From NCBI GenBank assembly GCA_964468645.1, contig CAYXUU010000033.1:2138-66137 (forward strand): a stretch of DNA of 64,000 nt, in the 5' to 3' direction. This DNA is from an uncultured Bacteroidales bacterium (GTDB lineage Bacteria > Bacteroidota > Bacteroidia > Bacteroidales > JAIOZK01). The notes under the pieces are model-generated. The model was not told the DNA's origin. It was given only the letters and a program-made list of their open reading frames with translations, and did no database searches. Position 1 is the stretch's first letter. Every line of letters begins with the position of its first letter. Made by a program: the position numbers and the translations under genes. Below are positions 53,589-64,000 of the stretch, piece after piece.

Positions 53589-54446
53589 ATGCAATTTAAC
53601 CATAAAAAAGTGGAAGAAGGTTTTTTCAGGGTCTTAATGTTTTTATCGACCTGCATGATAGCCCTGGCCCTTATTCTCATTATTTTTAGCATACTTTATA
53701 AAGGAATACCCTCACTATCATGGGAAATGATATCACAAACACCGAAGGGAGGATTTTATTTCGGGAAAGAAGGAGGAATACTGAATGCAATTATCGGATC
53801 CATATACCTTTCTGTCGGGGCAACTTTACTTGCATTTGTGATCGGGCTCCCTGTTGCCTTATTTATGAATGTGCACCTGGTAAAAAGAAAAAAAATTGTA
53901 AATGCCATTCGCTTCCTGCTTGACCTGCTCTGGGGGGTACCATCCATTGTATATGGTGCATTTGGGTTTACCATTATGATATTTCTGGGCATCAGGACAT
54001 CGCTTCTTGCCGGTATTATTACGGTGACACTTTTTATCATCCCTATTATGGTAAGAGCCATGGATGAGGTGCTTAAAGCTGTACCCAGGGAATTGCTTGA
54101 GGCAGCCATGTCACTGGGATCAACACGATCTGAGATATCGTATCGTGTTTTCTTCAAACAATGCATCCCCGGTGTAATTACTGCAGTATTGCTGTCGTTT
54201 GGCAGGGCAATAGGGGATGCAGCATCCATACTATTTACAACGGGTTATACCGATCATATTCCTACAGGATTAAATCAACCAACCGCTACCCTTCCTCTTT
54301 CGATATTCTTTCAACTGAGCTCCCCAATACCTGAAGTACAGAATAGGGCATATGCCTCGGCTGTCATTTTAGTCGGATTTATATTGATTATAAGCATCCT
54401 GGCCAGGATTTTTTCAGTAAAATACAAAAAAAATAAAATTGAATAA
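53589..54446 (+). CDS. pstA: PstA-family permease
   Basis: GGILNAIIGS, GVPSIVYG, EAAMSLG. Confidence 0.9.
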   Translation: MQFNHKKVEEGFFRVLMFLSTCMIALALILIIFSILYKGIPSLSWEMISQTPKGGFYFGKEGGILNAIIGSIYLSVGATLLAFVIGLPVALFMNVHLVKRKKIVNAIRFLLDLLWGVPSIVYGAFGFTIMIFLGIRTSLLAGIITVTLFIIPIMVRAMDEVLKAVPRELLEAAMSLGSTRSEISYRVFFKQCIPGVITAVLLSFGRAIGDAASILFTTGYTDHIPTGLNQPTATLPLSIFFQLSSPIPEVQNRAYASAVILVGFILIISILARIFSVKYKKNKIE

Positions 54447-54449
54447 AAG

Positions 54450-55211
54450 ATGGAATGCAAAACAAAAATTAAAATCATCAACCTCGATCTCCATATAGGC
54501 AAACATCATATCTTGAAAAACATCAATGCAAAGATACCAGATCGAAAGATCACTGTAATTATGGGACCTTCCGGATGTGGTAAAACTACATTATTGAAAA
54601 GCCTGAACAGGCTTACAGACTTGTATCCCGAAGTGAAACTGAGTGGCAGTATCCTGATTGATGAAGAAGATATACTGCATACCCATGAAGATATCACCCG
54701 GATCAGGAAAAAAATGGGACTGTTGTCACAAAGACCTTATCCCCTGCCAATGAATATTTATAACAATATTGCCTATGGGCTTCGGATCAGTGGAAGAAAG
54801 AAAAAGAAATACCTGGACAGACGGGTTGAATTATACCTACAACAGGTTAGTTTGTGGGAAGAGGTGAAAAGCAGATTGAAGGAACCTGCATGCAGGCTCA
54901 GCATTGGTCAGCAACAACGGCTATGCCTGGCAAGAGGCCTTGCTGTGGATCCGGAGATCATTTTAGCAGATGAACCTACATCAGCGCTTGACCCGATCTC
55001 AAGCCAGGCTATTGAGGAAAAATTCAGAGAGCTGAAAAGGAGATATCCCATCGTTTTGGTTACGCATATCCTGCGACAGGCTAAGAGAATTGCCGATTAT
55101 GTTATTTTTATGTACATGGGTGAAATCATAGAACAGGGCCCGGCTAAGGAAATTTTTGACAATCCGGAAAATGAAATGACGAAATCATATCTGAAAGGGG
55201 CGTTTTACTAA
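54450..55211 (+). CDS. pstB: PstB-family ABC ATPase
   Basis: GPSGCGKT, LSIGQQQRLC, DEPTSALDP. Confidence 0.9.
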   Translation: MECKTKIKIINLDLHIGKHHILKNINAKIPDRKITVIMGPSGCGKTTLLKSLNRLTDLYPEVKLSGSILIDEEDILHTHEDITRIRKKMGLLSQRPYPLPMNIYNNIAYGLRISGRKKKKYLDRRVELYLQQVSLWEEVKSRLKEPACRLSIGQQQRLCLARGLAVDPEIILADEPTSALDPISSQAIEEKFRELKRRYPIVLVTHILRQAKRIADYVIFMYMGEIIEQGPAKEIFDNPENEMTKSYLKGAFY

Positions 55212-55246
55212 AATTTATTTTTCTAATAAACTTGAATTCAATTTAA

Positions 55247-55343
55247 TCCGCCGGTAGGCGGACGAGGGTTTAATTCCCCGCTCCTTGGGGCGAAATATTT
55301 TACTCCAATTGATACCCCGTTGCTTGCCTTGGGGTGGTTCGTT
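55247..55343. mobile_element. Non-autonomous palindromic element resembling an IS200/IS605 end or REP-like remnant
   Basis: GC-rich hairpins tccgcc-ggta-ggcgga, cccc-gctcctt-gggg and gatacccc...ggggtggttc in an AT-rich spacer. Confidence 0.5.
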
Positions 55344-55391
55344 TTGGGAAATGTCTTTGGAAGAATAACCTAAAAATATAAATATCATATC

Positions 55392-56675
55392 ATGAAAAAG
55401 CATGTTTTTCTTTTCCTATTGATTGCTGGAATTTTCATATCGGAAATAAGTTATTCCCAGTTTACTGTCAATGCTGAGTTGAGGCCCAGAATTGAATTGA
55501 GAAACGGCTACAGGTTACTTCGGTCAGAAGCTAAAGATCCTGCTGTCTTTGTTAGCCAGAGAAGTAGGATCTCCCTGATGTACGGATCCGATAAACTTAA
55601 TGTGGGATTCAGCTTCCAGGATGTGCGGGTATGGGGTGATGAAAGCTTGTTCTCGAGCACAGGGGTTTATGGTGATGCAGCAAGCCTTGATGTGAATGAA
55701 GCCTGGATAGGACTTCGCTTTCTGAGGAACTCTTACCTTAAAATAGGTCGGCAGTATTTCGATTATGACGACAAACGATTGTTGTTTACACGAAATTGGG
55801 GTCAGCATTCTGTTGCCTATGATGCATTATTATACCAGTTGGGAAAAAATAATTTTAAACTGGATGTTGCGGTTTCCTATAATAATAACAGGGAAAATAT
55901 TTTTCGAGACCTTTTTACAACCGGGAAAATAAAAACCCTGAACTTTATTCATCTTGAGAAAAAATTATCTGTTTCATTTAAGATTTCGTCAATACTGATT
56001 ATATCCGGAATTGAGAAATCGGATACTTCAAAAACGATCTATATAAAAGCTACCTACGGTTTGTATGTCAATTATCAGAAAGACGATTTTAACGCTGAAT
56101 ATTCAGGTTATTATCAGAATGGAAAGAACAACTCCGGGCAGGATGTAAGTGCTTTTTGTCTTCATGCCAAAGCAGGATATGCTTTCAGGAACATCGGTTT
56201 TCATATCGGATTTACACTGATCTCGGGCGATAATATCAACACTGATAAAGATAACTTATTTGATAACCTGTATGGCGCAAGACATCGTTATTACGGATTT
56301 ATGGATTATTTTAATAATATTCCCAAATCGACGCAGAATGGAGGCTTGCAGGATTTATTTGGCAGTTTTAATTATACACTTTTTGATGTGGTTACCTTTT
56401 CCATCGATTATCATATGTTCTGGAATCAAAAAAAGGTAGTCAGCGCCCTTATCAATGATGCATGTGTTGTAATGCCTAAATCACTGGGGCAGGAAATTGA
56501 CCTTTACTTTGCTGTCAACTTTCTGAAGGGTGTTAATCTTCGCGGTGGTTATTCCGTTCTGAATCCGACGGTGACCCTGGAAGCAATACAGGGCATATCA
56601 AAGGGGGGGAGTCGGTTCTCGTATTGGGGTTGGCTGATGTTGACCGTTAAACCAGCCCTGTTTAGTACGAAATAA
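55392..56675 (+). CDS. Alginate-export-family outer-membrane beta-barrel (porin)
   Basis: Signal peptide; ELRPRIELRNG, QDVRVWG, KIGRQ, LYGARHRYYGFMDYF. Confidence 0.8.
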   Translation: MKKHVFLFLLIAGIFISEISYSQFTVNAELRPRIELRNGYRLLRSEAKDPAVFVSQRSRISLMYGSDKLNVGFSFQDVRVWGDESLFSSTGVYGDAASLDVNEAWIGLRFLRNSYLKIGRQYFDYDDKRLLFTRNWGQHSVAYDALLYQLGKNNFKLDVAVSYNNNRENIFRDLFTTGKIKTLNFIHLEKKLSVSFKISSILIISGIEKSDTSKTIYIKATYGLYVNYQKDDFNAEYSGYYQNGKNNSGQDVSAFCLHAKAGYAFRNIGFHIGFTLISGDNINTDKDNLFDNLYGARHRYYGFMDYFNNIPKSTQNGGLQDLFGSFNYTLFDVVTFSIDYHMFWNQKKVVSALINDACVVMPKSLGQEIDLYFAVNFLKGVNLRGGYSVLNPTVTLEAIQGISKGGSRFSYWGWLMLTVKPALFSTK

Positions 56676-56899: not shown

Positions 56900-57094
56900 T
56901 CAATTTTCTTCCTTCATTTGTTTGGATGCAGCACAAATGCATCCTCTTATTGTACACACAATAAAAACAAGAACTGCTGCAATGAAGAAGATCAGTGAAT
57001 AACAACAGAGGTCAGAAAAAAACAATGAAAGTATCAATGTTAAAAATCCTAAGCCACCCAGAACAATACCAAAATATGGAAGATATATTTTCAT
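56900..57094 (-). CDS. Small Cys-rich two-TM protein
   Basis: 64 aa, ATG 11 bp after the qmoC-like stop, two hydrophobic helices, five Cys. Confidence 0.5.
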   Translation of the reverse strand: MKIYLPYFGIVLGGLGFLTLILSLFFSDLCCYSLIFFIAAVLVFIVCTIRGCICAASKQMKEEN

Positions 57095-57105
57095 AACTAT
57101 AGAAT

Positions 57106-58263
57106 TTAGGTTTTACTTTTTTGAAGTTTTTTCGCAGCGGTAACTACATTATTAAAATATATAGCAAATGGCCTGTAAGCCAGATGCGACCATTTCGAGA
57201 ACGGCACCTCAATCATTAGCATTGGAAAGAGTACCATAATATGAAAAACATAGGTATAATATGTTGCATATGGCATTCCATAAATCCTGAAGAAGTGTAC
57301 CAGGATACCAGAGATGGTTGTCAGGAAAAGCAATACCAGGAATGTCCAGTCGGTAATATGCGAATGTTTGCTCTTCTCCTGGTCTTTCTTCAGTCTTGAG
57401 TAAAAAAAGTATACAACGCCGATGGTCAGTCCTATGGTTGCATAGTAGCCCAGGATTCTTTGCGGATGCCACCAATCATAAATATTATCCGTTTGGAACC
57501 ATTTTAAGAATACAACTATCATTGTGAACATTAACACATAACTTGTCATCAATAAAAAATGCACAACCCAATAAGTACTCAGGTTAAAGGATTTCTTAGA
57601 TTCAAGCCTGTTGCATTTTGAAAATTGCCATTGTGTGAAAAAGTGCAAAATTACTTTCCAGAATTCTGCAAAGTAAAGTTTAAGCGGTATTTTTAAGCGC
57701 TTATCCTTTCTGATGATTTTCAGGTACATATTAAAAATATTCGTCAGGAGGAAGAAAGATAAGATCCCCGCCATTATCCAGTCACCCAATTCAATCTGTT
57801 TCCATGGTGCGAAGGTATTAAGCTTGACACCGCCATCGGCTGTGAGCTCTGTTGTCATTGGTCCATGGAATAAAATAAACAACACCAGGATTACTGCAGC
57901 TAAGAACAATATGGAACCGAACTCCCAGAGTTTTGAAGTATATAATTTCCTTGCAAAGCCGGTCCAGTCATATTTTGAAGTTAGATACCTTCTTAAGGAC
58001 ATCATCAATTCGCCGGGATTGGCTTCTTTGGGGCAGGTTTCGCTGCATTCGCCGCAATAATAACACAACCATGGATCCACTGAAGCCTGAAGTTCATCTT
58101 CCAAGCCCAGAACACTTAGCCTTATCATCTTTCTGGGGAATGAATTCTCATCATCAGATAGCGAACACACTGCAGTACAGTTTCCACAATTATAGCAGGC
58201 ATTAAAATTAATCGCGCCAAATTCCTGAAGTTCCCCTGCAAAGCCTGGATTTATTTTAGCCAT
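57106..58263 (-). CDS. qmoC: QmoC-like subunit: HdrC-type 2x[4Fe-4S] domain plus heme-b membrane domain
   Basis: CYNCGNCTAVC, WLCYYCGECSETCP; ~6 TM with His residues (VVHF, LVHF, VFHI, PFSKWSH). Confidence 0.8.
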   Translation of the reverse strand: MAKINPGFAGELQEFGAINFNACYNCGNCTAVCSLSDDENSFPRKMIRLSVLGLEDELQASVDPWLCYYCGECSETCPKEANPGELMMSLRRYLTSKYDWTGFARKLYTSKLWEFGSILFLAAVILVLFILFHGPMTTELTADGGVKLNTFAPWKQIELGDWIMAGILSFFLLTNIFNMYLKIIRKDKRLKIPLKLYFAEFWKVILHFFTQWQFSKCNRLESKKSFNLSTYWVVHFLLMTSYVLMFTMIVVFLKWFQTDNIYDWWHPQRILGYYATIGLTIGVVYFFYSRLKKDQEKSKHSHITDWTFLVLLFLTTISGILVHFFRIYGMPYATYYTYVFHIMVLFPMLMIEVPFSKWSHLAYRPFAIYFNNVVTAAKKLQKSKT

Positions 58264-58265
58264 TT

Positions 58266-58538
58266 TTATTTCTTGTTTACTAGTTTGTAACTATAGTATT
58301 CATCCATATCGTCAATTTCATCGGTTTCAATTGCACCGAATTTTCTTAATGTCATCAGGTTATAGGTTGTCGTGTCCTGTGAAAGGCCAGATTCCTGAGC
58401 TATTTGAGGAATGGTTTTCGGCCCTTCCTTCAATGCACCCAATATTATTTTCTTAATCCTGTTATATTCCTTTACACGGTCTTTAACCGCTACAGGAACC
58501 GCTCTTTTTTCTTTTATAATATCGATAGTCTTCTGCAT
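58266..58538 (-). CDS. Small winged-helix protein
   Basis: ILGALKEGPKTIPQIAQESGL...NLMTLRKFGAI. Confidence 0.75.
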   Translation of the reverse strand: MQKTIDIIKEKRAVPVAVKDRVKEYNRIKKIILGALKEGPKTIPQIAQESGLSQDTTTYNLMTLRKFGAIETDEIDDMDEYYSYKLVNKK

Positions 58539-58586
58539 TTTAAATAAATTATTATGATCCTACATTATCAATAGTTAAACGCATGA

Positions 58587-60521
58587 TTATGACACTAAGG
58601 CCTCGATCATGCTTTCTATTTCCTGATCAGTGTATCCAATTAACTGGATAGCGTTAACAGGACAAACCGGAAGACACATTCCACAACCTTTGCAATTGGC
58701 ATTGTTGACATCAGCAATAGCTTTCCCATTATGATCGGTTTTAATTATAGCATCATAAGGACAGGCTTTCAAACATTCATCACACCATTCGCAAATGGAT
58801 CCATCGATTGTTGCCATTGTAGGTTCCAGTTCGATTTCCCCTTTGCTAACGAGCGAATCAGCTTTGGCAGCAGCTGATAAAGCAGAATTTACCGACTCGG
58901 TAATATTCTTAGGCCCCTGGCATGCCCCTGCAATATGAATCCCATCGATTACTGTTTCTACAGGGCGGAGTTTGGGATGTATTTCATTGTAAAATTTATC
59001 CCTGCCAATTGGCACCTTTAAGATATTACCTATTGTATCAGGATTCCGGGGTACCATTCCAGTTACCAGAACTACCATATCAACTTCGGCAGTAAGTTCC
59101 TTATCTTCCGTCAGGTAGTCATGCATCCTGACTATGGTGTTACCATCCATATTTTCCACAACAGGTGGATCATCTTCAAAGAACTGAAGAAAAATATCGC
59201 CGGAAGCAGAGGCCTGTTTATACAACATTTCCTGCTTACCATAAGTTCTTATTCCACGATTGAAATGAAAGTTATTTATCCCTTCATATTTTTCTCTTAA
59301 TAGGATAGCTGTGTGTATGGCAGAAGTACAGCAATAGCGCGAACAATACTTGTTTTCACCATTTACCTGCCTGCTTCCTACACAATAGATGTAAGCTACA
59401 TTCCGGATTTTCTTACCATTAAATACAAGTTCCTTTTCATTCAACTCAATCAAACGCTTAAGCTGTTGCAAAGTAACTACGTTCTCTAATTCGTGATAAC
59501 CGTATTCGCCCTTTTGAGGTTCATAGGGATCGAAACCTGTAGCCAGTAAATATGCCCCGGCCCTTACGTTCACAATTTCATCTTTTTGGTCAAGGTCAAT
59601 TTTTTCGCATATATTAACGCACTCACCACAACGATTGCAATGATCGGTATCTATGGCCGGGATTTCCGGAAATTCACTTGGGTAGTTCTTATAAATTGCT
59701 TTTTGTTTTGTAAGTCCAAAGTTGAAAGGATCATCGAATTCAATGGGACAAACTTCAACAGCTTTTTTGAATTTATCCCAATCAAGTTCACAATCGGGTT
59801 TAATGTGCCTTGCCTTTATTCTTATCTGTATTTCGAAGTTACCAACACTACCCTTACTAGAAATGATCTCGGCGCCAGTAAACAGGGTAATCCTGTCATA
59901 CTCCATGATCTTTTTGTACAACTTAGTAACAACTTCACGACCGGTTTCATTGGTTGTGAATAGTTCGTTCCATTGTGATGAACGCCCACCGACAAAATAC
60001 TCCCTTTCCAGTAAGTAAACATATGAGCCCATATCTGCCAGTTCGATAGCAGCACGCATGCCTGCAATTCCGGCCCCGACAACAACGACTACATTTTCAG
60101 CAGATATGCTTACCGTAGTTAATGCTTCGGAATATTTAACCCTTGCAACACCGCTTTTAATTAGCTGTGTCGCTTTTTCTGTTGCCTCGGCCGGTTTATC
60201 CGAATGTGCCCAGGAACATTGCTCGCGTATGTTAACCTGAACATAATTATACGGATTTAATCCTGCTCGTATAGCTACATTCCTGAAAGTATATAAATGA
60301 AGCTTTGGTGAGCATGAGGCAACGACAATTGAGTCAAGTCCATACTCCTTGATATCACTTACAATTTCCTGTTGGGTTGAATCAGCACAGGCAAACATCG
60401 TTGTTTTTGATAGGACTACGCCTTCAATTTTCTCAATGGCATTTTTGACTTTTTCGACATCGACATAATCGGAAATATTCGATCCGCATTGACAAATATA
60501 AACCCCAATTTTACTCTTCAT
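58587..60521 (-). CDS. hdrA: HdrA-family flavo-FeS subunit (full architecture)
   Basis: ICQCG N-domain, NIREQCSW, GAGIAG, CVGSR...CSRYCC, C-terminal 2x[4Fe-4S]. Confidence 0.92.
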   Translation of the reverse strand: MKSKIGVYICQCGSNISDYVDVEKVKNAIEKIEGVVLSKTTMFACADSTQQEIVSDIKEYGLDSIVVASCSPKLHLYTFRNVAIRAGLNPYNYVQVNIREQCSWAHSDKPAEATEKATQLIKSGVARVKYSEALTTVSISAENVVVVVGAGIAGMRAAIELADMGSYVYLLEREYFVGGRSSQWNELFTTNETGREVVTKLYKKIMEYDRITLFTGAEIISSKGSVGNFEIQIRIKARHIKPDCELDWDKFKKAVEVCPIEFDDPFNFGLTKQKAIYKNYPSEFPEIPAIDTDHCNRCGECVNICEKIDLDQKDEIVNVRAGAYLLATGFDPYEPQKGEYGYHELENVVTLQQLKRLIELNEKELVFNGKKIRNVAYIYCVGSRQVNGENKYCSRYCCTSAIHTAILLREKYEGINNFHFNRGIRTYGKQEMLYKQASASGDIFLQFFEDDPPVVENMDGNTIVRMHDYLTEDKELTAEVDMVVLVTGMVPRNPDTIGNILKVPIGRDKFYNEIHPKLRPVETVIDGIHIAGACQGPKNITESVNSALSAAAKADSLVSKGEIELEPTMATIDGSICEWCDECLKACPYDAIIKTDHNGKAIADVNNANCKGCGMCLPVCPVNAIQLIGYTDQEIESMIEALVS

Positions 60522-61809
60522 TATTCCCTCCTCTTATATAACTTGCAGTTTCTGATGAAGCGGCGCCAGCTGATAATATGGAATCGGGAATATCCATTGG
60601 GCCAGATGCAGTACCTGCAACAAAAATCCCATCAACACTTGTTTTGGCAGGGCAACACAATTCATCGATTTGTTTAATGTAGTTGAATTCGTCATGTTCA
60701 ACAGTTTCATTAATAAACATTGAGGAATAATCAGTATTCGGCATAATACCAACTGACAGAACTACGAGATCATGTTCAGCTTCTTTTACCCGTCCATCTT
60801 CAAAATCCTCATATCTTAATATCAGGTTACCGTCTTCCTTTTCATCTATTCTTCCAATTTTACCCTTAATAAATTCGACCCCCATTCCCCTTGCCTGGTT
60901 ATAGAACTCACAGAAACCTTTTCCGAAAGCCCGGATATGGATATAATAAATGGTAACATCAGCCATAGGCAATGCCCCCATCAGAAGTTGTGCCTGCTTG
61001 GTTGAATACATGCAACACACCTGGGAACAAATTGGATTTCCAACGGTATCATCACGTGATCCGGCACAAAGCACATAGGCTATATTATCGGGCATTTTAC
61101 CATCCCCGGGCCGCAGAACTGTATTGAAAGGCCTAGTCGGGACAAGTTGACGTTCCATTTGCATGGAGGTAACAACATTTTTAAATTTTCCGAAACCATA
61201 ACGTGGAATAAGACTTGGATCGAAAAGTTTAAACCCGGTAGCAAAAACAATTGAAGAAATATTAATATTCGTAATAATATCCTCCTGGGTAAAATCAATT
61301 GCATTTGCCGGACAAACTTTTTCACAAGCACCACATAGAATACAGTTATCGATATCAATGGCAGCAATCCTGGGATTTGCAATACTGAATGGAACATAGA
61401 CCGCTTTTCTCCCTACCAGATCGTACTGGTACTGGTCTTCAACAACTACAGGACACTTTTCCTCACATAACTGGCAACCTGTACAATCAGTGGTTACGTA
61501 TCTTGGTTTCTCAACCAGGTCAGCTGTAAAATTATTTTCCCCATGCTTTTTAATATTTTCAATAACTGAGTTGGTATAAATTGTGATATTAGGATGCCTT
61601 GCTGTTTCCGATACCTTGGGAGTGGTGATACATGCAGAACAATCGAGGGTTGGAAAGACCTTGCTGAGATGTATCATTTTCCCTCCCAATGAATAGTCCT
61701 TTTCAACAAGCAATACCTTATAACCAAGGTTTGCCAGATTTAATGCAGCCTCTTCCCCTGCAATCCCACCACCAATAACCAGGGAATCAAATTTATGTGA
61801 TTGTGTCAT
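60511..61809 (-). CDS. hdrA: HdrA-family flavo-FeS subunit (core plus inserted ferredoxin only)
   Basis: GGGIAG, FPTLDCSAC, two CxxCxxCxxxCP, CAGSR...CSQVCCMYSTK, GPMDIP. Confidence 0.92.
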   Translation of the reverse strand: MTQSHKFDSLVIGGGIAGEEAALNLANLGYKVLLVEKDYSLGGKMIHLSKVFPTLDCSACITTPKVSETARHPNITIYTNSVIENIKKHGENNFTADLVEKPRYVTTDCTGCQLCEEKCPVVVEDQYQYDLVGRKAVYVPFSIANPRIAAIDIDNCILCGACEKVCPANAIDFTQEDIITNINISSIVFATGFKLFDPSLIPRYGFGKFKNVVTSMQMERQLVPTRPFNTVLRPGDGKMPDNIAYVLCAGSRDDTVGNPICSQVCCMYSTKQAQLLMGALPMADVTIYYIHIRAFGKGFCEFYNQARGMGVEFIKGKIGRIDEKEDGNLILRYEDFEDGRVKEAEHDLVVLSVGIMPNTDYSSMFINETVEHDEFNYIKQIDELCCPAKTSVDGIFVAGTASGPMDIPDSILSAGAASSETASYIRGGNNEE

Positions 61810-61864
61810 ATTTCTCCGACCTGTTTAATTAATAAATCTCATTATCCAGACTAGCATATATGGC

Positions 61865-62257
61865 CTAATCAGACAATGCCGTTACAAAATTTTTCATATG
61901 TTTAACAAAAGGTTCCGAACAAACGGAGCAGATTGCAGCCATTTTTAATCGTGAAGGATCAATGCCTTTTTTCTTCATGATTTCATGGGAATTCTTCACC
62001 ACTTCCCCTGTTTTCTCAGTACATGTTTCACTGAAGGAACAATCTGTCCCATCTGCAGCGATAAATATTCCGTCAAATCCTTTCTCGAACGCATGAAGAA
62101 TCCATCTTGTCTTTATTGCGCTTGAGCAGGGAATGTTCACTGTATAAACAGAGGGCGGATAATGCATCTTCAACAATCCCGCTAAATCAATAGCGGGATC
62201 TGAAATTTTCTCCGTTGAAAAAACAAGAATTCTTGGAACTTTGTTTTTTGCATCCAT
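61865..62257 (-). CDS. mvhD: MvhD/FlpD-like FeS subunit with an atypical Cys pattern
   Basis: DLAG...YPP...PCS...AFEKGFDGI...GIDPSRL. Confidence 0.8.
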   Translation of the reverse strand: MDAKNKVPRILVFSTEKISDPAIDLAGLLKMHYPPSVYTVNIPCSSAIKTRWILHAFEKGFDGIFIAADGTDCSFSETCTEKTGEVVKNSHEIMKKKGIDPSRLKMAAICSVCSEPFVKHMKNFVTALSD

Positions 62258-62261
62258 GTAA

Positions 62262-62513
62262 TTATGCTTTTTTCAGGTAGATTTTGAAATACCCTGATTC
62301 TTCCACAGTTCCAAGGTATTCATGCCCCTTTTTACCTGCCCACTTCGGAACATCACGCCTTGTTCCTTCATCTGATGAAAGAATCTCCATAATTTCCCCT
62401 GAAGCAATTGTTCCGATAGCCTTTTTGGCTTCCAGTAATGGTCCCGGACAGGCTGTACCTCTTGCATCAACTGTTTTATTTACAGCTACTGTTTGTAATT
62501 CTTCGATTGTCAT
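62262..62513 (-). CDS. tusA: TusA-family sulfur carrier
   Basis: DARGTACPGP motif. Confidence 0.92.
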   Translation of the reverse strand: MTIEELQTVAVNKTVDARGTACPGPLLEAKKAIGTIASGEIMEILSSDEGTRRDVPKWAGKKGHEYLGTVEESGYFKIYLKKA

Positions 62514-62532
62514 GTTTATTTGTTTTAATGGT

Positions 62533-62946
62533 TTATATAAAAATGTGTAAATCAGATTCTTCGGCTGATGTAAGATATTCCCCTATTCCACAGAGGTCGT
62601 CCACCAGGTCGTTAAAGTCTTCAAGCTTTTCGCCCCCCCAGATCTTTCCGGCCAGGCTGCAGATATAAACCTTAACATTGGTCATCTCCCTGGCCATGGT
62701 AAAGAATTCATACCAGGATGACACATTCAGGTCCTTAAGCGCTTTCATAAAATCTTCTTTCAAATGAGGAGCTTCAGCCACATTATCAATCTTATTCTCG
62801 TTCCCTTTAATAAAAGCACGGGCACCCTGAAGCAGTACATATACTTCAACATCCATATCATCAGCGGCTGCACCACTGAGTATAACACCAGCAGCCGTTA
62901 GTTTATCCAGACTTCCTGAAAAAAGCCCCATACATAATTTTGCCAT
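62533..62946 (-). CDS. DsrE2/DrsE-family sulfurtransferase
   Basis: FSGSLDK...SGAAA...VKVYICSL...GIGEYL...LHIFI. Confidence 0.82.
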   Translation of the reverse strand: MAKLCMGLFSGSLDKLTAAGVILSGAAADDMDVEVYVLLQGARAFIKGNENKIDNVAEAPHLKEDFMKALKDLNVSSWYEFFTMAREMTNVKVYICSLAGKIWGGEKLEDFNDLVDDLCGIGEYLTSAEESDLHIFI

Positions 62947-62996
62947 GGTTTAAATTGTTTTTGTTTTCAATTATTTATTCAAATTATTTATCAAGT

Positions 62997-63518
62997 TTAG
63001 CCTCCGCACCCACCGGATTCCTCTACTTTGGGTGCAGTTTCCTCCCCCGGGGTATCGGCTCCGGTTTCTATCGAATCAGGATAATATGCCTTCCAGCCCT
63101 CCCAGCCATTCTCTATCATTTTAACCTTGCTGTATTTTAATGCCTGAAGGCTTTCTGCTGCCAGCGCAGAGCAATCATCCGAATAGCCATAAATATATAT
63201 CTCATCCCTTCTGTTGGTAAGCTTATCTGAAAACCCAATCATCCCTCTGGTGATACTTATTGCTCCAGGGATGTGCCCTTTAATAAAATCTCCATCCTGT
63301 CTGCAATCAATGATAACAATGTTATCATTCTGATCCATTAAATCCTTGAATTTATCAACTGAAATTGAATTCACATTTGACCTGGCTTTTAATACCATAT
63401 CATCAAGATTCCCAATCTTCACTTCTTGCTGGCATCCGGTTAGAAGAAATAGTAATAAGCCAATGAGGATTACCGGGGCATGGATTATTAAATTGTTGTT
63501 AGTTATCAGTTTCTTCAT
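62997..63518 (-). CDS. Rhodanese-like lipoprotein with C-terminal GGCGG
   Basis: Lipobox LTGC; IDCR...GHIPGA; ENGWEGW; ends EESGGCGG*. Confidence 0.85.
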   Translation of the reverse strand: MKKLITNNNLIIHAPVILIGLLLFLLTGCQQEVKIGNLDDMVLKARSNVNSISVDKFKDLMDQNDNIVIIDCRQDGDFIKGHIPGAISITRGMIGFSDKLTNRRDEIYIYGYSDDCSALAAESLQALKYSKVKMIENGWEGWKAYYPDSIETGADTPGEETAPKVEESGGCGG

Positions 63519-63540
63519 CTCAGTATTTATTTAGATGATT

Positions 63541-64000
63541 TTATTTTATGGGATTATCAGTGTTAGCTGTCCACTCGTAGAATGCGCCATCATATACCCT
63601 CACATCAGGGTAATCGAGGATGTACTTAAGGGCCAGATAAACGATACCTGCCCTGGCACTGGTTTCACAATACAGGATCACCTCTTTATCATCGGTTATA
63701 CCTGCATCATTGAAAACTGCCGCCAATGCCTCAGCCGATTTAACACTTCCATTTTCTTTAAGCACACCTTTATATTCAAGGTTAATTGCACCAGGAATAT
63801 GTCCTTTACGGCTTGCCTCACCTTTAACACCATCGAATTCATCCTTGCTTCTTACATCTACAATCACAACACCAGGATCATTCAAGTGTGAATTAACATA
63901 GGCTTCTGTAGCAATTTTGCTGGCATCAGGTGATGCTGTAAAAGTTACCGCTTTAATCGTTGTAGGATTTTTTGTAAGTGGCAAACGGTTCTTGCGCCAT
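63541..64000 (-). CDS. Multidomain sulfurtransferase (TST/MST type), 5' end outside the window
   Basis: Frame open to the window edge (WRKNRLP linker); DVRS...GHIPGA, YCETSAR, YDGAFYEW. Confidence 0.88.
   Translation of the reverse strand, partial: WRKNRLPLTKNPTTIKAVTFTASPDASKIATEAYVNSHLNDPGVVIVDVRSKDEFDGVKGEASRKGHIPGAINLEYKGVLKENGSVKSAEALAAVFNDAGITDDKEVILYCETSARAGIVYLALKYILDYPDVRVYDGAFYEWTANTDNPIK

Follow-up and report, generated by a model that had tools for sequence, protein, structure and literature searches.

Introduction

Can an Hdr-type flavoprotein complex turn over sulfur that is held on carrier proteins without the help of HdrB? The question is raised by a 64,000-nucleotide (nt) stretch of DNA from an uncultured marine Bacteroidales bacterium (the window; GCA_964468645.1, contig CAYXUU010000033.1, which in our numbering is genome G000, contig C33, G000:C33:2138-66137), in which ten tightly packed open reading frames (ORFs), all on the minus strand, fill positions 56900-64000. 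An earlier note, made from the letters of the window, read them as one operon that joins a sulfur relay (rhodaneses, DsrE2, TusA) to an MvhD-like protein, two HdrA flavoproteins, a winged-helix protein, a QmoC-like membrane subunit and a small cysteine-rich peptide. All of these ORFs are present, and the Pfam and NCBIfam profile searches by which we assigned the window proteins agree with the domains it named. Anoxic sediments, sulfidic waters and digesters count Bacteroidales and Anaerolineae among their most abundant heterotrophs, for which models usually assume a fermentative life.

In this work, we draw on gene content, domain architectures, motifs, synteny and distribution to propose a role for this complex. 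We argue, with a probability of about 0.5, that it would turn over carrier-bound sulfane sulfur in a reaction coupled to menaquinone and ferredoxin, that it would do so without HdrB, and that it would run reductively, by electron confurcation. More tentatively, we suggest that it may be an unrecognised HdrB-less protein-persulfide oxidoreductase, coupled to menaquinone and ferredoxin, with TusA and DsrE2 as its substrates, a CxxC motif of the MvhD-like subunit as its site and a relay in the cell envelope as its feed, which would give Bacteroidales, Anaerolineae and others an energy-conserving respiration or oxidation of sulfur or thiosulfate without Psr, Dsr, Sox or sHdr. If this is true, a cryptic route of sulfur cycling has been missed by surveys that use dsr, apr, sox, psr and sqr as markers, Hdr-type bifurcating modules can work without HdrB, and the type II Qmo proteins acquire a function that can be tested.

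Throughout the text the numbers preceded by G, C and L denote genomes, contigs and examined loci, respectively, hdrA_s and hdrA_l are the genes of the short and the long HdrA, rhd stands for rhodanese genes and wHTH for the winged-helix gene. Scores of profile searches are in bits and lengths of proteins in amino acids (aa).

Conserved linkage of sulfur carriers to an HdrA-HdrA-QmoC module

A scan of a QmoC alignment against one genome per species returned at least 584 relatives, the best 80 of which we examined, counting TusA and DsrE within -8/+6 kb and treating as well flanked those loci with at least 6 kb upstream and at least 5 kb downstream. TusA or DsrE is found at 39 of these best 80 loci, MvhA at 18 and AprA at one; 17, mostly on short contigs, have none of them, and at five QmoC was not called. 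Among the 47 well-flanked loci the counts are 29 for TusA/DsrE, 14 for MvhA, one for AprA and three for none. Of the 39 sulfur-linked loci, 23 belong to Chloroflexota, eight to Bacteroidota, two to Verrucomicrobiota and one each to Krumholzibacteriota, Planctomycetota and Myxococcota; for the other three no phylum is given. The linkage of sulfur carriers to hdrA-hdrA-qmoC, on which the earlier note had staked its reading, is conserved across six phyla, and none of aprAB, sat or hdrB, the neighbours that would have pointed to a canonical system, lies adjacent in the window or in the inspected relatives. No HdrB or other CCG protein appears in the ORF lists of these relatives, which were labelled by BLAST without an HdrB reference and without a CCG-specific scan.

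The window QmoC falls outside the canonical Qmo proteins in a tree of 94 QmoC-like proteins, built quickly by maximum likelihood, and belongs to a group of 23 rows from Bacteroidota and Krumholzibacteriota (SH-aLRT 92) in which hydrogenase-linked proteins do not occur. The latter are mostly gathered in an adjacent group from Bacteroidota, and a third clade (99), rich in Chloroflexota, unites further sulfur-linked proteins. Two canonical Apr-linked QmoC proteins (C15, L107) sit outside on very long branches; the third row labelled Apr, a second QmoC-like gene beside the apr-qmo cluster of L107, is placed within the clade rich in Chloroflexota. On the tree the context labels cluster without being monophyletic, and the sulfur and hydrogenase contexts have therefore been exchanged more than once.

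The module also varies in composition. The Chloroflexota form reads tusA-mvhD-hdrA-hdrA-wHTH-qmoC-dsrE, with a DsrE of 120 aa, and is often accompanied by a second tusA with yeeE and by LysR or ArsR regulators. At nine loci (L037, L038, L084, L105, L026, L123, L125, L126, L129) the short HdrA is extended to 904-939 aa, the extra part being a GltD/NfnB-like NAD(P)H module made of Fer4_20 and Pyr_redox_2 domains (Pfam on L037, L084 and L026); at L097 the NAD(P)H-module protein is a separate gene. These variants retain DsrE2, TusA and the MvhD-like gene. The winged-helix gene is missing in eight of the nine loci with the long form, L084 being the one that has it. With a profile of the MvhD-like protein as marker (E <= 1e-20), a match is obtained in 68 of the 301 genomes drawn evenly from the order, and in 56 of 208 genera.

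A remodelled MvhD subunit

The MvhD-like protein of the sulfur-linked loci is a subtype strictly tied to the sulfur context. A C-terminal CxxC (Cys110, Cys113) is present in all 38 sulfur-linked MvhD-like proteins and in none of 26 hydrogenase-linked ones, whereas an N-terminal CxxC is present in 26 of 26 hydrogenase-linked MvhD proteins, as well as in the solved structure 5odc_D, and in none of the 38. The C-terminal motif is the sole invariant cysteine pair of the sulfur-linked proteins: 23 of the 38 keep five cysteines, six have three or fewer, and two hold the CxxC alone. The AlphaFold2 model of the window protein (pLDDT 88.5) has 5odc_D as its top Foldseek match (TM-score 0.89, root-mean-square deviation 1.3), and in this model the CxxC comes after strand 4, at the sheet edge to which the lost ligands also belonged.

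For this pair a redox-active dithiol is favoured over a cluster ligand, since the members that have only two or three cysteines could not by themselves supply a cluster with four. A co-fold of the MvhD-like protein (alignment A2) with TusA (alignment A3) scored 0.00 and gave no answer, speaking neither for nor against binding. The swap between hydrogenase and sulfur carriers, together with the matching swap of the MvhD cysteine motif, provides handles for mutagenesis.

The upstream half of the operon and its envelope proteins

The operon runs past position 64000, as the earlier note had said: rhd1 starts 401 nt beyond the end of the window and 64 nt from the end of the contig, which itself extends 465 nt past the window. 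The genes further upstream, identified by synteny with L122 and L132, suggest an operon of about 14-15 genes that has an Fnr-like regulator beside it and whose ten distal members lie in the window. Another contig of the same genome, C42, opens with the first 37 codons of a lipoprotein, near-identical to the N-terminal part of a 333-aa rhodanese encoded on C9. It continues on the same strand with a 167-aa rhodanese lipoprotein (tail SGCGG), a 404-aa YeeE (PF04143, Sulf_transp, 178.7 bits) and a TusA-like gene, tusA', that is 77% identical to tusA76 of L122, followed by a divergent Fnr-like gene. The intergenic region beside that Fnr-like gene (L119:2162-2347) contains a TGTG-N8-CACA palindrome.

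The closed genome G111 (L122) has the whole set in one piece, with a contiguous first half that reads Fnr, then tusA76-yeeE404-rhd158-rhd321-porin348-rhd268-rhd167, and continues with dsrE2-tusA83-mvhD-hdrA432-hdrA644-wHTH-qmoC349. Four further closed genomes, G079, G182, G257 and G299, carry the operon as well. The metagenome contig L132 has the same order from yeeE to qmoC, along with a divergent Fnr-like gene; its proteins are 55-81% identical to those of the window, and its upstream Rhd338 and porin, which have no counterpart in the window, match other references at 37-44%. The gene order in G039 (L025), L031 and L034 agrees, and rhd1 orthologues that are 41-71% identical occupy the equivalent slot in L025, L031, L034, L122 and L132. 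The porin belongs to the Porin_O_P family (68.6 bits; OprO/P-like anion porins). On this basis the end of C33 and the start of C42 appear to be neighbours, separated by a gap of about 2 kb that would hold the rest of rhd333' and the porin gene. The break in the assembly probably stems from a paralogous rhd333-porin363-rhd287 set on C9; a repeat of this kind would explain it. Together with a periplasmic rhd288 and two Fnr-like genes, that set makes up a second group of genes, at C9:69-6226, paralogous to the uptake half; at C9:1159-1368 lies a 69-aa hydrophobic, cysteine-containing ORF that is loosely reminiscent of the 64-aa ORF of the window. The uptake half, the altered MvhD and the rhodanese tails described below had not been seen in the earlier note.

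Not all relatives have the full set. The same-genus genomes G001 and G003 have an abridged form, in which dsrE2 is the first gene and an Fnr-like gene its direct neighbour, and on the metagenome contigs L134-L137, L146, L148 and L157 the tusA-yeeE-rhd-rhd-porin-rhd module is coupled to other HdrA/QmoC-like genes. An Fnr/Crp-family gene is divergent to the first operon gene in nine of the ten complete loci L122-L131, the exception being L125. At five of these nine (L123, L126, L127, L129, L130) an exact GTGAT-N4-ATCAC palindrome lies between the two genes. The YeeE of C42 scores well below the cut-offs of the TsuA/TsuB models (NF052577, 94.1 vs 400 bits; NF041049, 77.2 vs 645).

Carrier-arm tails of the rhodanese lipoproteins

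The small rhodaneses of these operons end in a cysteine-bearing arm. The tail is GGCGG, SGCGG or GGCG in ten of ten small rhodaneses from L025, L031, L033, L034 and L039, and it is likewise present in both small rhodaneses of L122, in the Rhd167 of C42 and in the Rhd2 of the window. Every single-domain periplasmic rhodanese lipoprotein of the inspected genome clusters carries it, as do eight of twelve from metagenome loci. In the accessible part of PMC6067878, the cysteine of GGCGG is the established substrate- and sulfur-binding site of SoxY. The rhodanese lipoproteins have the identical C-terminal motif; they are, however, rhodaneses without the SoxY fold, PF00581 being the only Pfam family found in them.

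In the four exceptions the tail is SGG, and then come TGA-GAT-stop and, directly after it, an inverted repeat or hairpin. They lie at L134:2545-3084, L136:945-1484, L137:748-1287 and L148:7001-7588, three of them being near-identical, and the TGA stands at the position of the GGCGG cysteine. This TGA may encode selenocysteine at the carrier position.

Proposed mechanism

The earlier note had proposed a distinct complex that exchanges electrons between quinone, ferredoxin and protein-bound persulfides. Its distinctness and its linkage to sulfur carriers are borne out above, while the electron exchange and its direction remain matters that we infer. The scheme set out here names a candidate substrate, a catalytic site, a use of quinone and ferredoxin, and a direction.

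Outside the inner membrane, the anion porin and four periplasmic rhodaneses, two of which are lipoproteins with GGCGG tails, would capture polysulfide, elemental sulfur (S0) or thiosulfate, and the YeeE/YedE-family transporter, with its own TusA-like partner, would move the sulfur across. TusA and the DsrE2B-like protein would then carry the sulfur in the form of a cysteine persulfide or thiosulfonate and present it to the Hdr/Qmo-like complex, which would consist of a heterodimer of core HdrA and full-length HdrA with two flavins (FAD), the MvhD-like subunit, the winged-helix protein and the QmoC-like protein. Thiol/persulfide exchange at the CxxC of the MvhD-like subunit, or at a site near a flavin, would replace the catalysis of HdrB. 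The sulfane sulfur would leave as H2S, with menaquinol (through QmoC) and reduced ferredoxin (through the C-terminal ferredoxin domain of hdrA_l) as the electron donors. In the methanogen enzyme this domain of HdrA reportedly links the flavin to ferredoxin.

The S0/HS- couple lies at about -270 mV and ferredoxin at about -450 mV. Menaquinol lies at -75 mV in the accessible part of Ramos et al. (2012; PMC3333476), where a scheme of flavin-based confurcation is proposed for QmoABC and APS (adenosine 5'-phosphosulfate) reductase along with the composition of Qmo. Menaquinol alone could not reduce sulfane sulfur, and menaquinol and ferredoxin together would average near -260 mV; confurcation would therefore solve the problem of the weak donor. 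The same scaffold in a hydrogenase paralogue (described below) shows that the redox partner can be swapped, the slot being filled here only by sulfur carriers. We favour reduction because an anion porin, a YeeE importer and persulfide arms fit import over freely diffusing H2S, and the NAD(P)H module of the variant loci fits a reductase fed by cellular reductant.

Several points weigh against this reading or temper the evidence for it. No S-S catalytic site stands out in the cluster, in which HdrB and CCG proteins are absent and HdrA has no sulfur-clade-specific cysteine beyond cluster-type ones. The CxxC could instead re-ligate an Fe-S cluster, perhaps one shared with a partner subunit, and the five cysteines kept by most MvhD-like proteins fit cluster ligation. 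With energetics so near balance, sulfide oxidation with bifurcation is equally allowed. The putative join of C42 and C33 rests on synteny, not on sequence, and the best NCBIfam names for the YeeE (YedE/FdhT, 134.8 vs a cut-off of 350 bits), the porin (ExtI, 46.6 vs 150) and rhd1 (ExtH, 50.5 vs 200) are selenium names, all scored below cut-off. The sequencing runs that match the locus are 11 DNA runs from marine or seawater metagenomes and no RNA run. Finally, the 80 loci behind our counts are the top-ranked relatives of the query and not a random sample, and the ORFs of the relatives come from our own script, with labels assigned by BLAST or by hidden Markov models built from the same loci.

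Gene products of the window

The features discussed here are collected in Table 1. Within the window the ORFs are closely spaced, hdrA_s and hdrA_l overlapping by 11 nt and wHTH and qmoC lying 2 nt apart. Scans for sigma-70 promoters (30 found vs 24.8 +/- 4.3 expected) and for terminators (5 vs 5.1 +/- 2.3) are at the level of chance, Bacteroidota promoters lying outside the sigma-70 model. Convergent with the operon and downstream of it are a PstA-like permease and a PstB-like ATPase (both named from translations only) as well as an outer-membrane protein (427 aa) that matches the Alginate_exp family with 64.4 bits (PF13372); these genes are unrelated to the sulfur cluster and mark the end of the operon.

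Table 1. Positions of the operon genes in the window and of related features on other contigs of the genome (window coordinates unless a contig or locus is named).
Feature	Position	Strand	Description
rhd1, 3' part	63541-64000 (full gene to window-equivalent 64401)	minus	PF00581, 74.1 bits
rhd1, full gene	L001:7679-8539		286 aa, tandem rhodanese with signal peptide, predicted periplasmic
rhd2	62997-63518	minus	173-aa single-domain rhodanese lipoprotein, PF00581 65.5 bits, C-terminus GGCGG
dsrE2	62533-62946	minus	137 aa, DrsE_2 PF13686 33.9 bits
tusA	62262-62513	minus	83 aa, PF01206 81.6 bits, CPGP active-site motif
mvhD-like	61865-62257	minus	130 aa, FlpD/MvhD PF02662 97.5 bits (cut-off 22.3)
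hdrA_s	60511-61809	minus	432-aa HdrA core: FAD domain with inserted ferredoxin domain
hdrA_l	58587-60521	minus	644-aa full-length HdrA: N-terminal, FAD and C-terminal 2x[4Fe-4S] ferredoxin domains
wHTH	58266-58538	minus	90 aa, no Cys or His; between hdrA_l and qmoC
qmoC-like	57106-58263	minus	385 aa, HdrC-like 2x[4Fe-4S] domain and multi-span, His-rich cytochrome b-like domain
small ORF	56900-57094	minus	64 aa, hydrophobic, Cys-rich, no family match
pst-like and Alginate_exp genes	53589-56675	plus	PstA-like, PstB-like, 427-aa outer-membrane protein
tusA'	C42:1940-2161		TusA-like partner gene of yeeE
rhd333-porin363-rhd287	C9:3196-6226		Paralogous set
PhsA-like operon	C9 (L120:6234-13279)		Molybdoenzyme, Fe-S subunit, NrfD, YeeE, rhodaneses
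aprB-aprA-qmoA-qmoB-qmoC	C15 (L016:1838-9178)		Canonical Apr-Qmo cluster
hydrogenase-linked cluster	C26 (L013:8150-17185)		hdrA, qmoC-like, hdrA, mvhD, mvhG, mvhA

The sulfur relay comprises rhd1, rhd2, dsrE2 and tusA. Rhd1 has a single hydrophobic segment at its N-terminus, and the N-terminus of Rhd2, read directly from the sequence, is lipobox-like. The best solved relative of the dsrE2 product is PDB 2QS7 (E 5.5e-15), which is named as a DsrE2B homotrimer in the accessible part of PMC11094781. No transmembrane or hydrophobic segment is predicted in it, and because of this we read it as a soluble, DsrE2B-like sulfur carrier. The candidate carrier cysteines are conserved, Cys96 of DsrE2 in 16 of 16 homologues and Cys22 of TusA in 35 of 35, the latter being invariant in alignment A3.

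The two HdrA proteins differ in extent. hdrA_l is collinear over residues 3-633 with residues 4-640 of the solved HdrA 5odc_A (E 3.7e-140), scores 582.5 bits with the HdrA2 model NF040770 and has its Fer4 domains at 570-630. hdrA_s scores 457.5 bits with the same model, over model positions 141-564, and shares 33.5% identity with the QmoA of the same genome and 39% with the hydrogenase-linked HdrA_h1. Its architecture is QmoA-like, yet the methanogen-type DCSxC cysteine is retained: Cys57 is present in 29 of 29 sulfur-linked orthologues, at a site where canonical QmoA has proline, and it is probably a cluster ligand, since its position is that of the methanogen DCSxC motif. We considered and rejected a catalytic cysteine in hdrA_s that would be specific to the clade, the Cys385/Cys386 pair being unconserved (0.03) and Cys57 matching DCSxC.

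The QmoC-like protein scores 211.7 bits with NF038018, against a cut-off of 300. Its eight cluster cysteines are present in 58 of 58 homologues, and His207, His235, His266, His302, His323, His341 and His360 are conserved at 83-100%; from these histidines and at least five hydrophobic segments a haem b domain is predicted. The winged-helix protein has weak Pfam matches below cut-off (DUF7342, 24.5 bits; HTH_5, 19.7 bits), and its gene adjoins 30 of 44 sulfur-linked qmoC genes in Bacteroidota, Chloroflexota and Verrucomicrobiota. The small cysteine-rich membrane peptide of the earlier note does have an ORF, but its standing as a gene is weak: among all loci examined it has one homologue (L033, 35% identity), and it may not be a gene.

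Other redox systems in the genome

The genome (5.35 Mb in 85 contigs, 94.7% complete), whose best QmoC relatives by identity (75-79%) come from metagenome-assembled genomes of uncultured Bacteroidales, has three QmoC-type genes, on C15, on C26 and in the window cluster. The earlier note had seen no HdrB or AprAB; this holds within the window but not for the genome. On C15, aprB-aprA-qmoA-qmoB-qmoC all score above the NCBIfam cut-offs (AprA 891.7, AprB 194.7, QmoC 390.2 bits), the QmoB having a VhuD match at residues 620-752 and 416 bits with NF040770 in three stretches. CCG proteins of the HdrB type (PF02754) occur only on C41, C6 and C28 (251, 699 and 438 aa), and none of them is linked to hdrA. 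Of the other markers that the earlier note had suggested, dsrA (TIGR02064) was found neither in G000 nor in any of six genomes of the genus, and ATP sulfurylase (sat) was found neither in G000 (TIGR00339, PF01747) nor in those six genomes (PF01747). The AprBA-QmoABC of C15 is in this respect an orphan APS reductase, the source or sink of APS being unexplained.

AprA scores above cut-off in six of 41 relatives (G000-G004 and G029); G005 has an AprA fragment that is below cut-off and lies at a contig edge. Apr is not the general partner of the sulfur-linked cluster, because four of the nine sulfur-cluster genomes among these 41 (G006, G024, G039 and G014) carry the cluster without AprA.

The cluster on C26 reads hdrA(603)-qmoC-like(382)-hdrA(583)-mvhD-mvhG-mvhA with a maturation protease; upstream of it, in the same orientation, stands an Fnr-like gene. 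The cluster would couple a [NiFe] hydrogenase to a quinone module of the QmoC type and is plausibly a bifurcating H2:menaquinone/ferredoxin hydrogenase. Among the 80 loci, 18 have a cluster of this type, which is common in Bacteroidota and Ignavibacteriota. The window QmoC is 54% identical to the hydrogenase-linked QmoC of C26 and 27% to the Apr-linked QmoC of C15, and the window HdrA proteins are 27-34% identical to the genome's QmoA and QmoB (hdrA_l 27% to QmoB).

A further operon, on C9 beside an Fnr-like gene, encodes a 747-aa PhsA/PsrA-like molybdoenzyme with a Tat-type (twin-arginine) N-terminus (PhsA model 458 bits, cut-off 694), an Fe-S subunit, NrfD, a split YeeE (176 and 196 aa) and two membrane rhodaneses, and from these families it appears to be a second sulfur-related respiratory system of G000. 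With this operon and AprBA-QmoABC in the genome, the picture in the earlier note of a member of a phylum usually regarded as fermentative has to be amended: by its genes, the organism is not purely a fermenter.

Alternative explanations

The main rival to a reductive complex is the same complex run in reverse. Sulfide, or a carrier thiol with HS-, would be converted to carrier persulfide, the electrons would be bifurcated to menaquinone and to ferredoxin or NAD(P)+, and the relay would export zero-valent sulfur. The potentials are near balance, and the hydrogenase-linked paralogue would most naturally run from its donor to quinone and ferredoxin. The AprBA-QmoABC of the genus could operate oxidatively, and Rhd-TusA-DsrE2 relays are best known from sulfur oxidisers in the accessible part of PMC11094781. 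We nevertheless think reversal unlikely. H2S needs neither a porin nor a transporter, and an anion porin with YeeE fits uptake better; the precedent for YeeE/TsuA is an importer, both in what is accessible of PMC11094781 and in the NCBIfam names; and the NAD(P)H modules of the variants suit a reductase. Nor is an oxygen-inserting enzyme that could process the sulfane sulfur further (sHdr HdrB, Dsr or Sox, LbpA not having been searched) linked to the cluster, and dsrA was found in none of the six genus genomes.

A thiosulfate pathway would make use of both Qmo-type complexes of the genome. In this account YeeE and TusA' import thiosulfate, the window complex cleaves a carrier thiosulfonate to sulfide and sulfite, and AprBA-QmoABC oxidises the sulfite to APS, which amounts to a Dsr-independent disproportionation with menaquinone cycling between the two complexes. 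The genes for YeeE and a TusA-like protein do head the operon, and pairs of YeeE and TusA flank the Chloroflexota versions; AprA is present in the six relatives named above and dsrA was not found in the genus; and the cleavage needs low-potential electrons (E0' about -400 mV) that a ferredoxin-coupled HdrA could supply. Attractive as the pathway is for this genome, we regard it as improbable, since no ATP sulfurylase to account for the fate of APS was found by the searches just described, since the sulfur-cluster genomes that have no AprA show that it could not be general, and since the TsuA models score far below cut-off.

That the operon encodes a generic bifurcating module for quinone, ferredoxin and NAD(P)H with partners other than sulfur, TusA and DsrE2 serving cofactor maturation, sensing or regulation, seems to us decidedly improbable. 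The NAD(P)H module of the variants would by itself complete a bifurcating enzyme, a winged-helix protein is encoded within the operon, and the single co-fold gave no answer. In its basic form, however, the complex has the carriers as its sole third redox partner, and where the NAD(P)H module is present DsrE2, TusA and the MvhD-like gene are retained. A complete uptake system for the envelope also stands in the same operon, and the MvhD subtype varies strictly together with the sulfur context.

That selenium or tellurium is handled instead, with selenite or selenotrisulfides taken up and reduced so as to detoxify them, respire them or supply selenium, is suggested by the best NCBIfam names, which are YedE/FdhT for YeeE, YedF for both TusA proteins, ExtH for rhd1 and ExtI for the porin, and by the TGA and hairpin at the carrier-cysteine codon of four related contigs, which possibly encodes selenocysteine. 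Every one of the selenium-named matches is below cut-off, though, and DsrE2 and TusA together with a GGCGG arm are a hallmark of sulfur relays. A module found in about one fifth of the genomes of the order, and common in Anaerolineae, fits an abundant substrate, and an exchange of selenocysteine and cysteine marks a reactive residue rather than a selenium substrate. We consider this reading very improbable. That the complex is an ordinary QmoABC serving a distant AprAB is hardly credible, for although the genome has aprBA and the subunit types are as in Qmo, aprBA has its own adjacent qmoABC above cut-offs, the window QmoC is below cut-off and 27% identical to the Apr-linked QmoC, and relatives carry the cluster without AprA.

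Comparison with known systems

The reductive, carrier-linked complex that we prefer shares parts with several characterised systems. With canonical QmoABC, the quinone-interacting membrane-bound oxidoreductase known from Chlorobia and sulfate reducers, it has in common two HdrA-like flavoproteins and an HdrC-like domain fused to a predicted haem b membrane domain. In QmoABC, however, the MvhD-like module is fused to the C-terminus of QmoB, whereas in the window it is a separate gene with a different cysteine pattern; the long HdrA of the window has retained its 2x[4Fe-4S] ferredoxin domain at the C-terminus; a winged-helix gene is added; the QmoC falls short of the NF038018 cut-off; and the complex is encoded in one operon with TusA, DsrE2, rhodaneses, YeeE and porin, with no aprBA adjacent. 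By these features of its sequence the window complex is not a canonical QmoABC. In the accessible part of Neukirchen et al. (2023; PMC10504309), type II Qmo proteins are described as HdrA-like, occurring whether or not Dsr and Apr are present, and their function is said to need experiments. The window flavoproteins, compared with type II Qmo by this description only, may likewise be nearer to methanogen HdrA than to canonical QmoA/B: hdrA_l matches the HdrA2 model collinearly, with 582.5 bits, vs 416 bits in three stretches for the genome's QmoB, a comparison that does not include reference sequences of type II Qmo.

The methanogen MvhAGD-HdrABC complex (5ODC) offers the closest structural template for the soluble parts: the long HdrA is collinear with its HdrA over about 630 residues, the MvhD-like protein superposes on its MvhD, and the HdrC-like domain is shared. 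The logic of the bifurcating flavin, with a mid-potential partner, a high-potential acceptor and ferredoxin, may be shared as well. The window complex differs in that it has neither HdrB (the CCG protein with noncubane clusters) nor MvhAG, in that its HdrA pair is a predicted heterodimer of a truncated and a full-length protein, of which only the short one has DCSxC, and in that HdrC is fused to a membrane domain, so that the high-potential partner is presumably a quinone. The hydrogenase cluster of C26 is the nearest paralogue: it too has two HdrA-like subunits and the most similar of the genome's QmoC proteins, and often has an Fnr-like gene nearby, but it has a [NiFe] hydrogenase and a canonical MvhD, no sulfur carriers, no winged-helix gene and a different gene order.

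In the uptake half, as in the ExtH/ExtI pair of Geobacter to which the NCBIfam names refer, a rhodanese lipoprotein is encoded beside an outer-membrane porin. For the relay itself, the Cys-Pro-x-Pro motif of TusA, the conserved cysteine of DsrE and the rhodanese domains are those of Rhd-TusA-DsrE2 relays, along which sulfur would be passed. In the sHdr system, as described in the accessible part of PMC11094781, an HdrA-family flavoprotein is tied to TusA, DsrE2-type carriers, rhodaneses and YeeE-like importers, as it is in the window; sHdr, however, is soluble, has a single-cluster HdrA and needs sHdrB1/B2/C1/C2 (gene set shdrC1B1AHC2B2 or B3) and the lipoate-binding LbpA, whereas the window complex has a QmoC membrane anchor. 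No CCG/HdrB gene appears in the cluster ORF lists, those of the relatives carrying BLAST labels without an HdrB reference; LbpA was not searched.

In the open full-text literature we found no description of the sulfur-linked cluster, nor of the alternation between hydrogenase and sulfur carriers, the remodelled MvhD or the GGCGG-armed rhodaneses; subscription journals lie outside that coverage, and a prior description is possible there. The protein families that make up the complex are all known, and there is a fair chance that the turnover of persulfides by an Hdr-type enzyme without HdrB is new chemistry.

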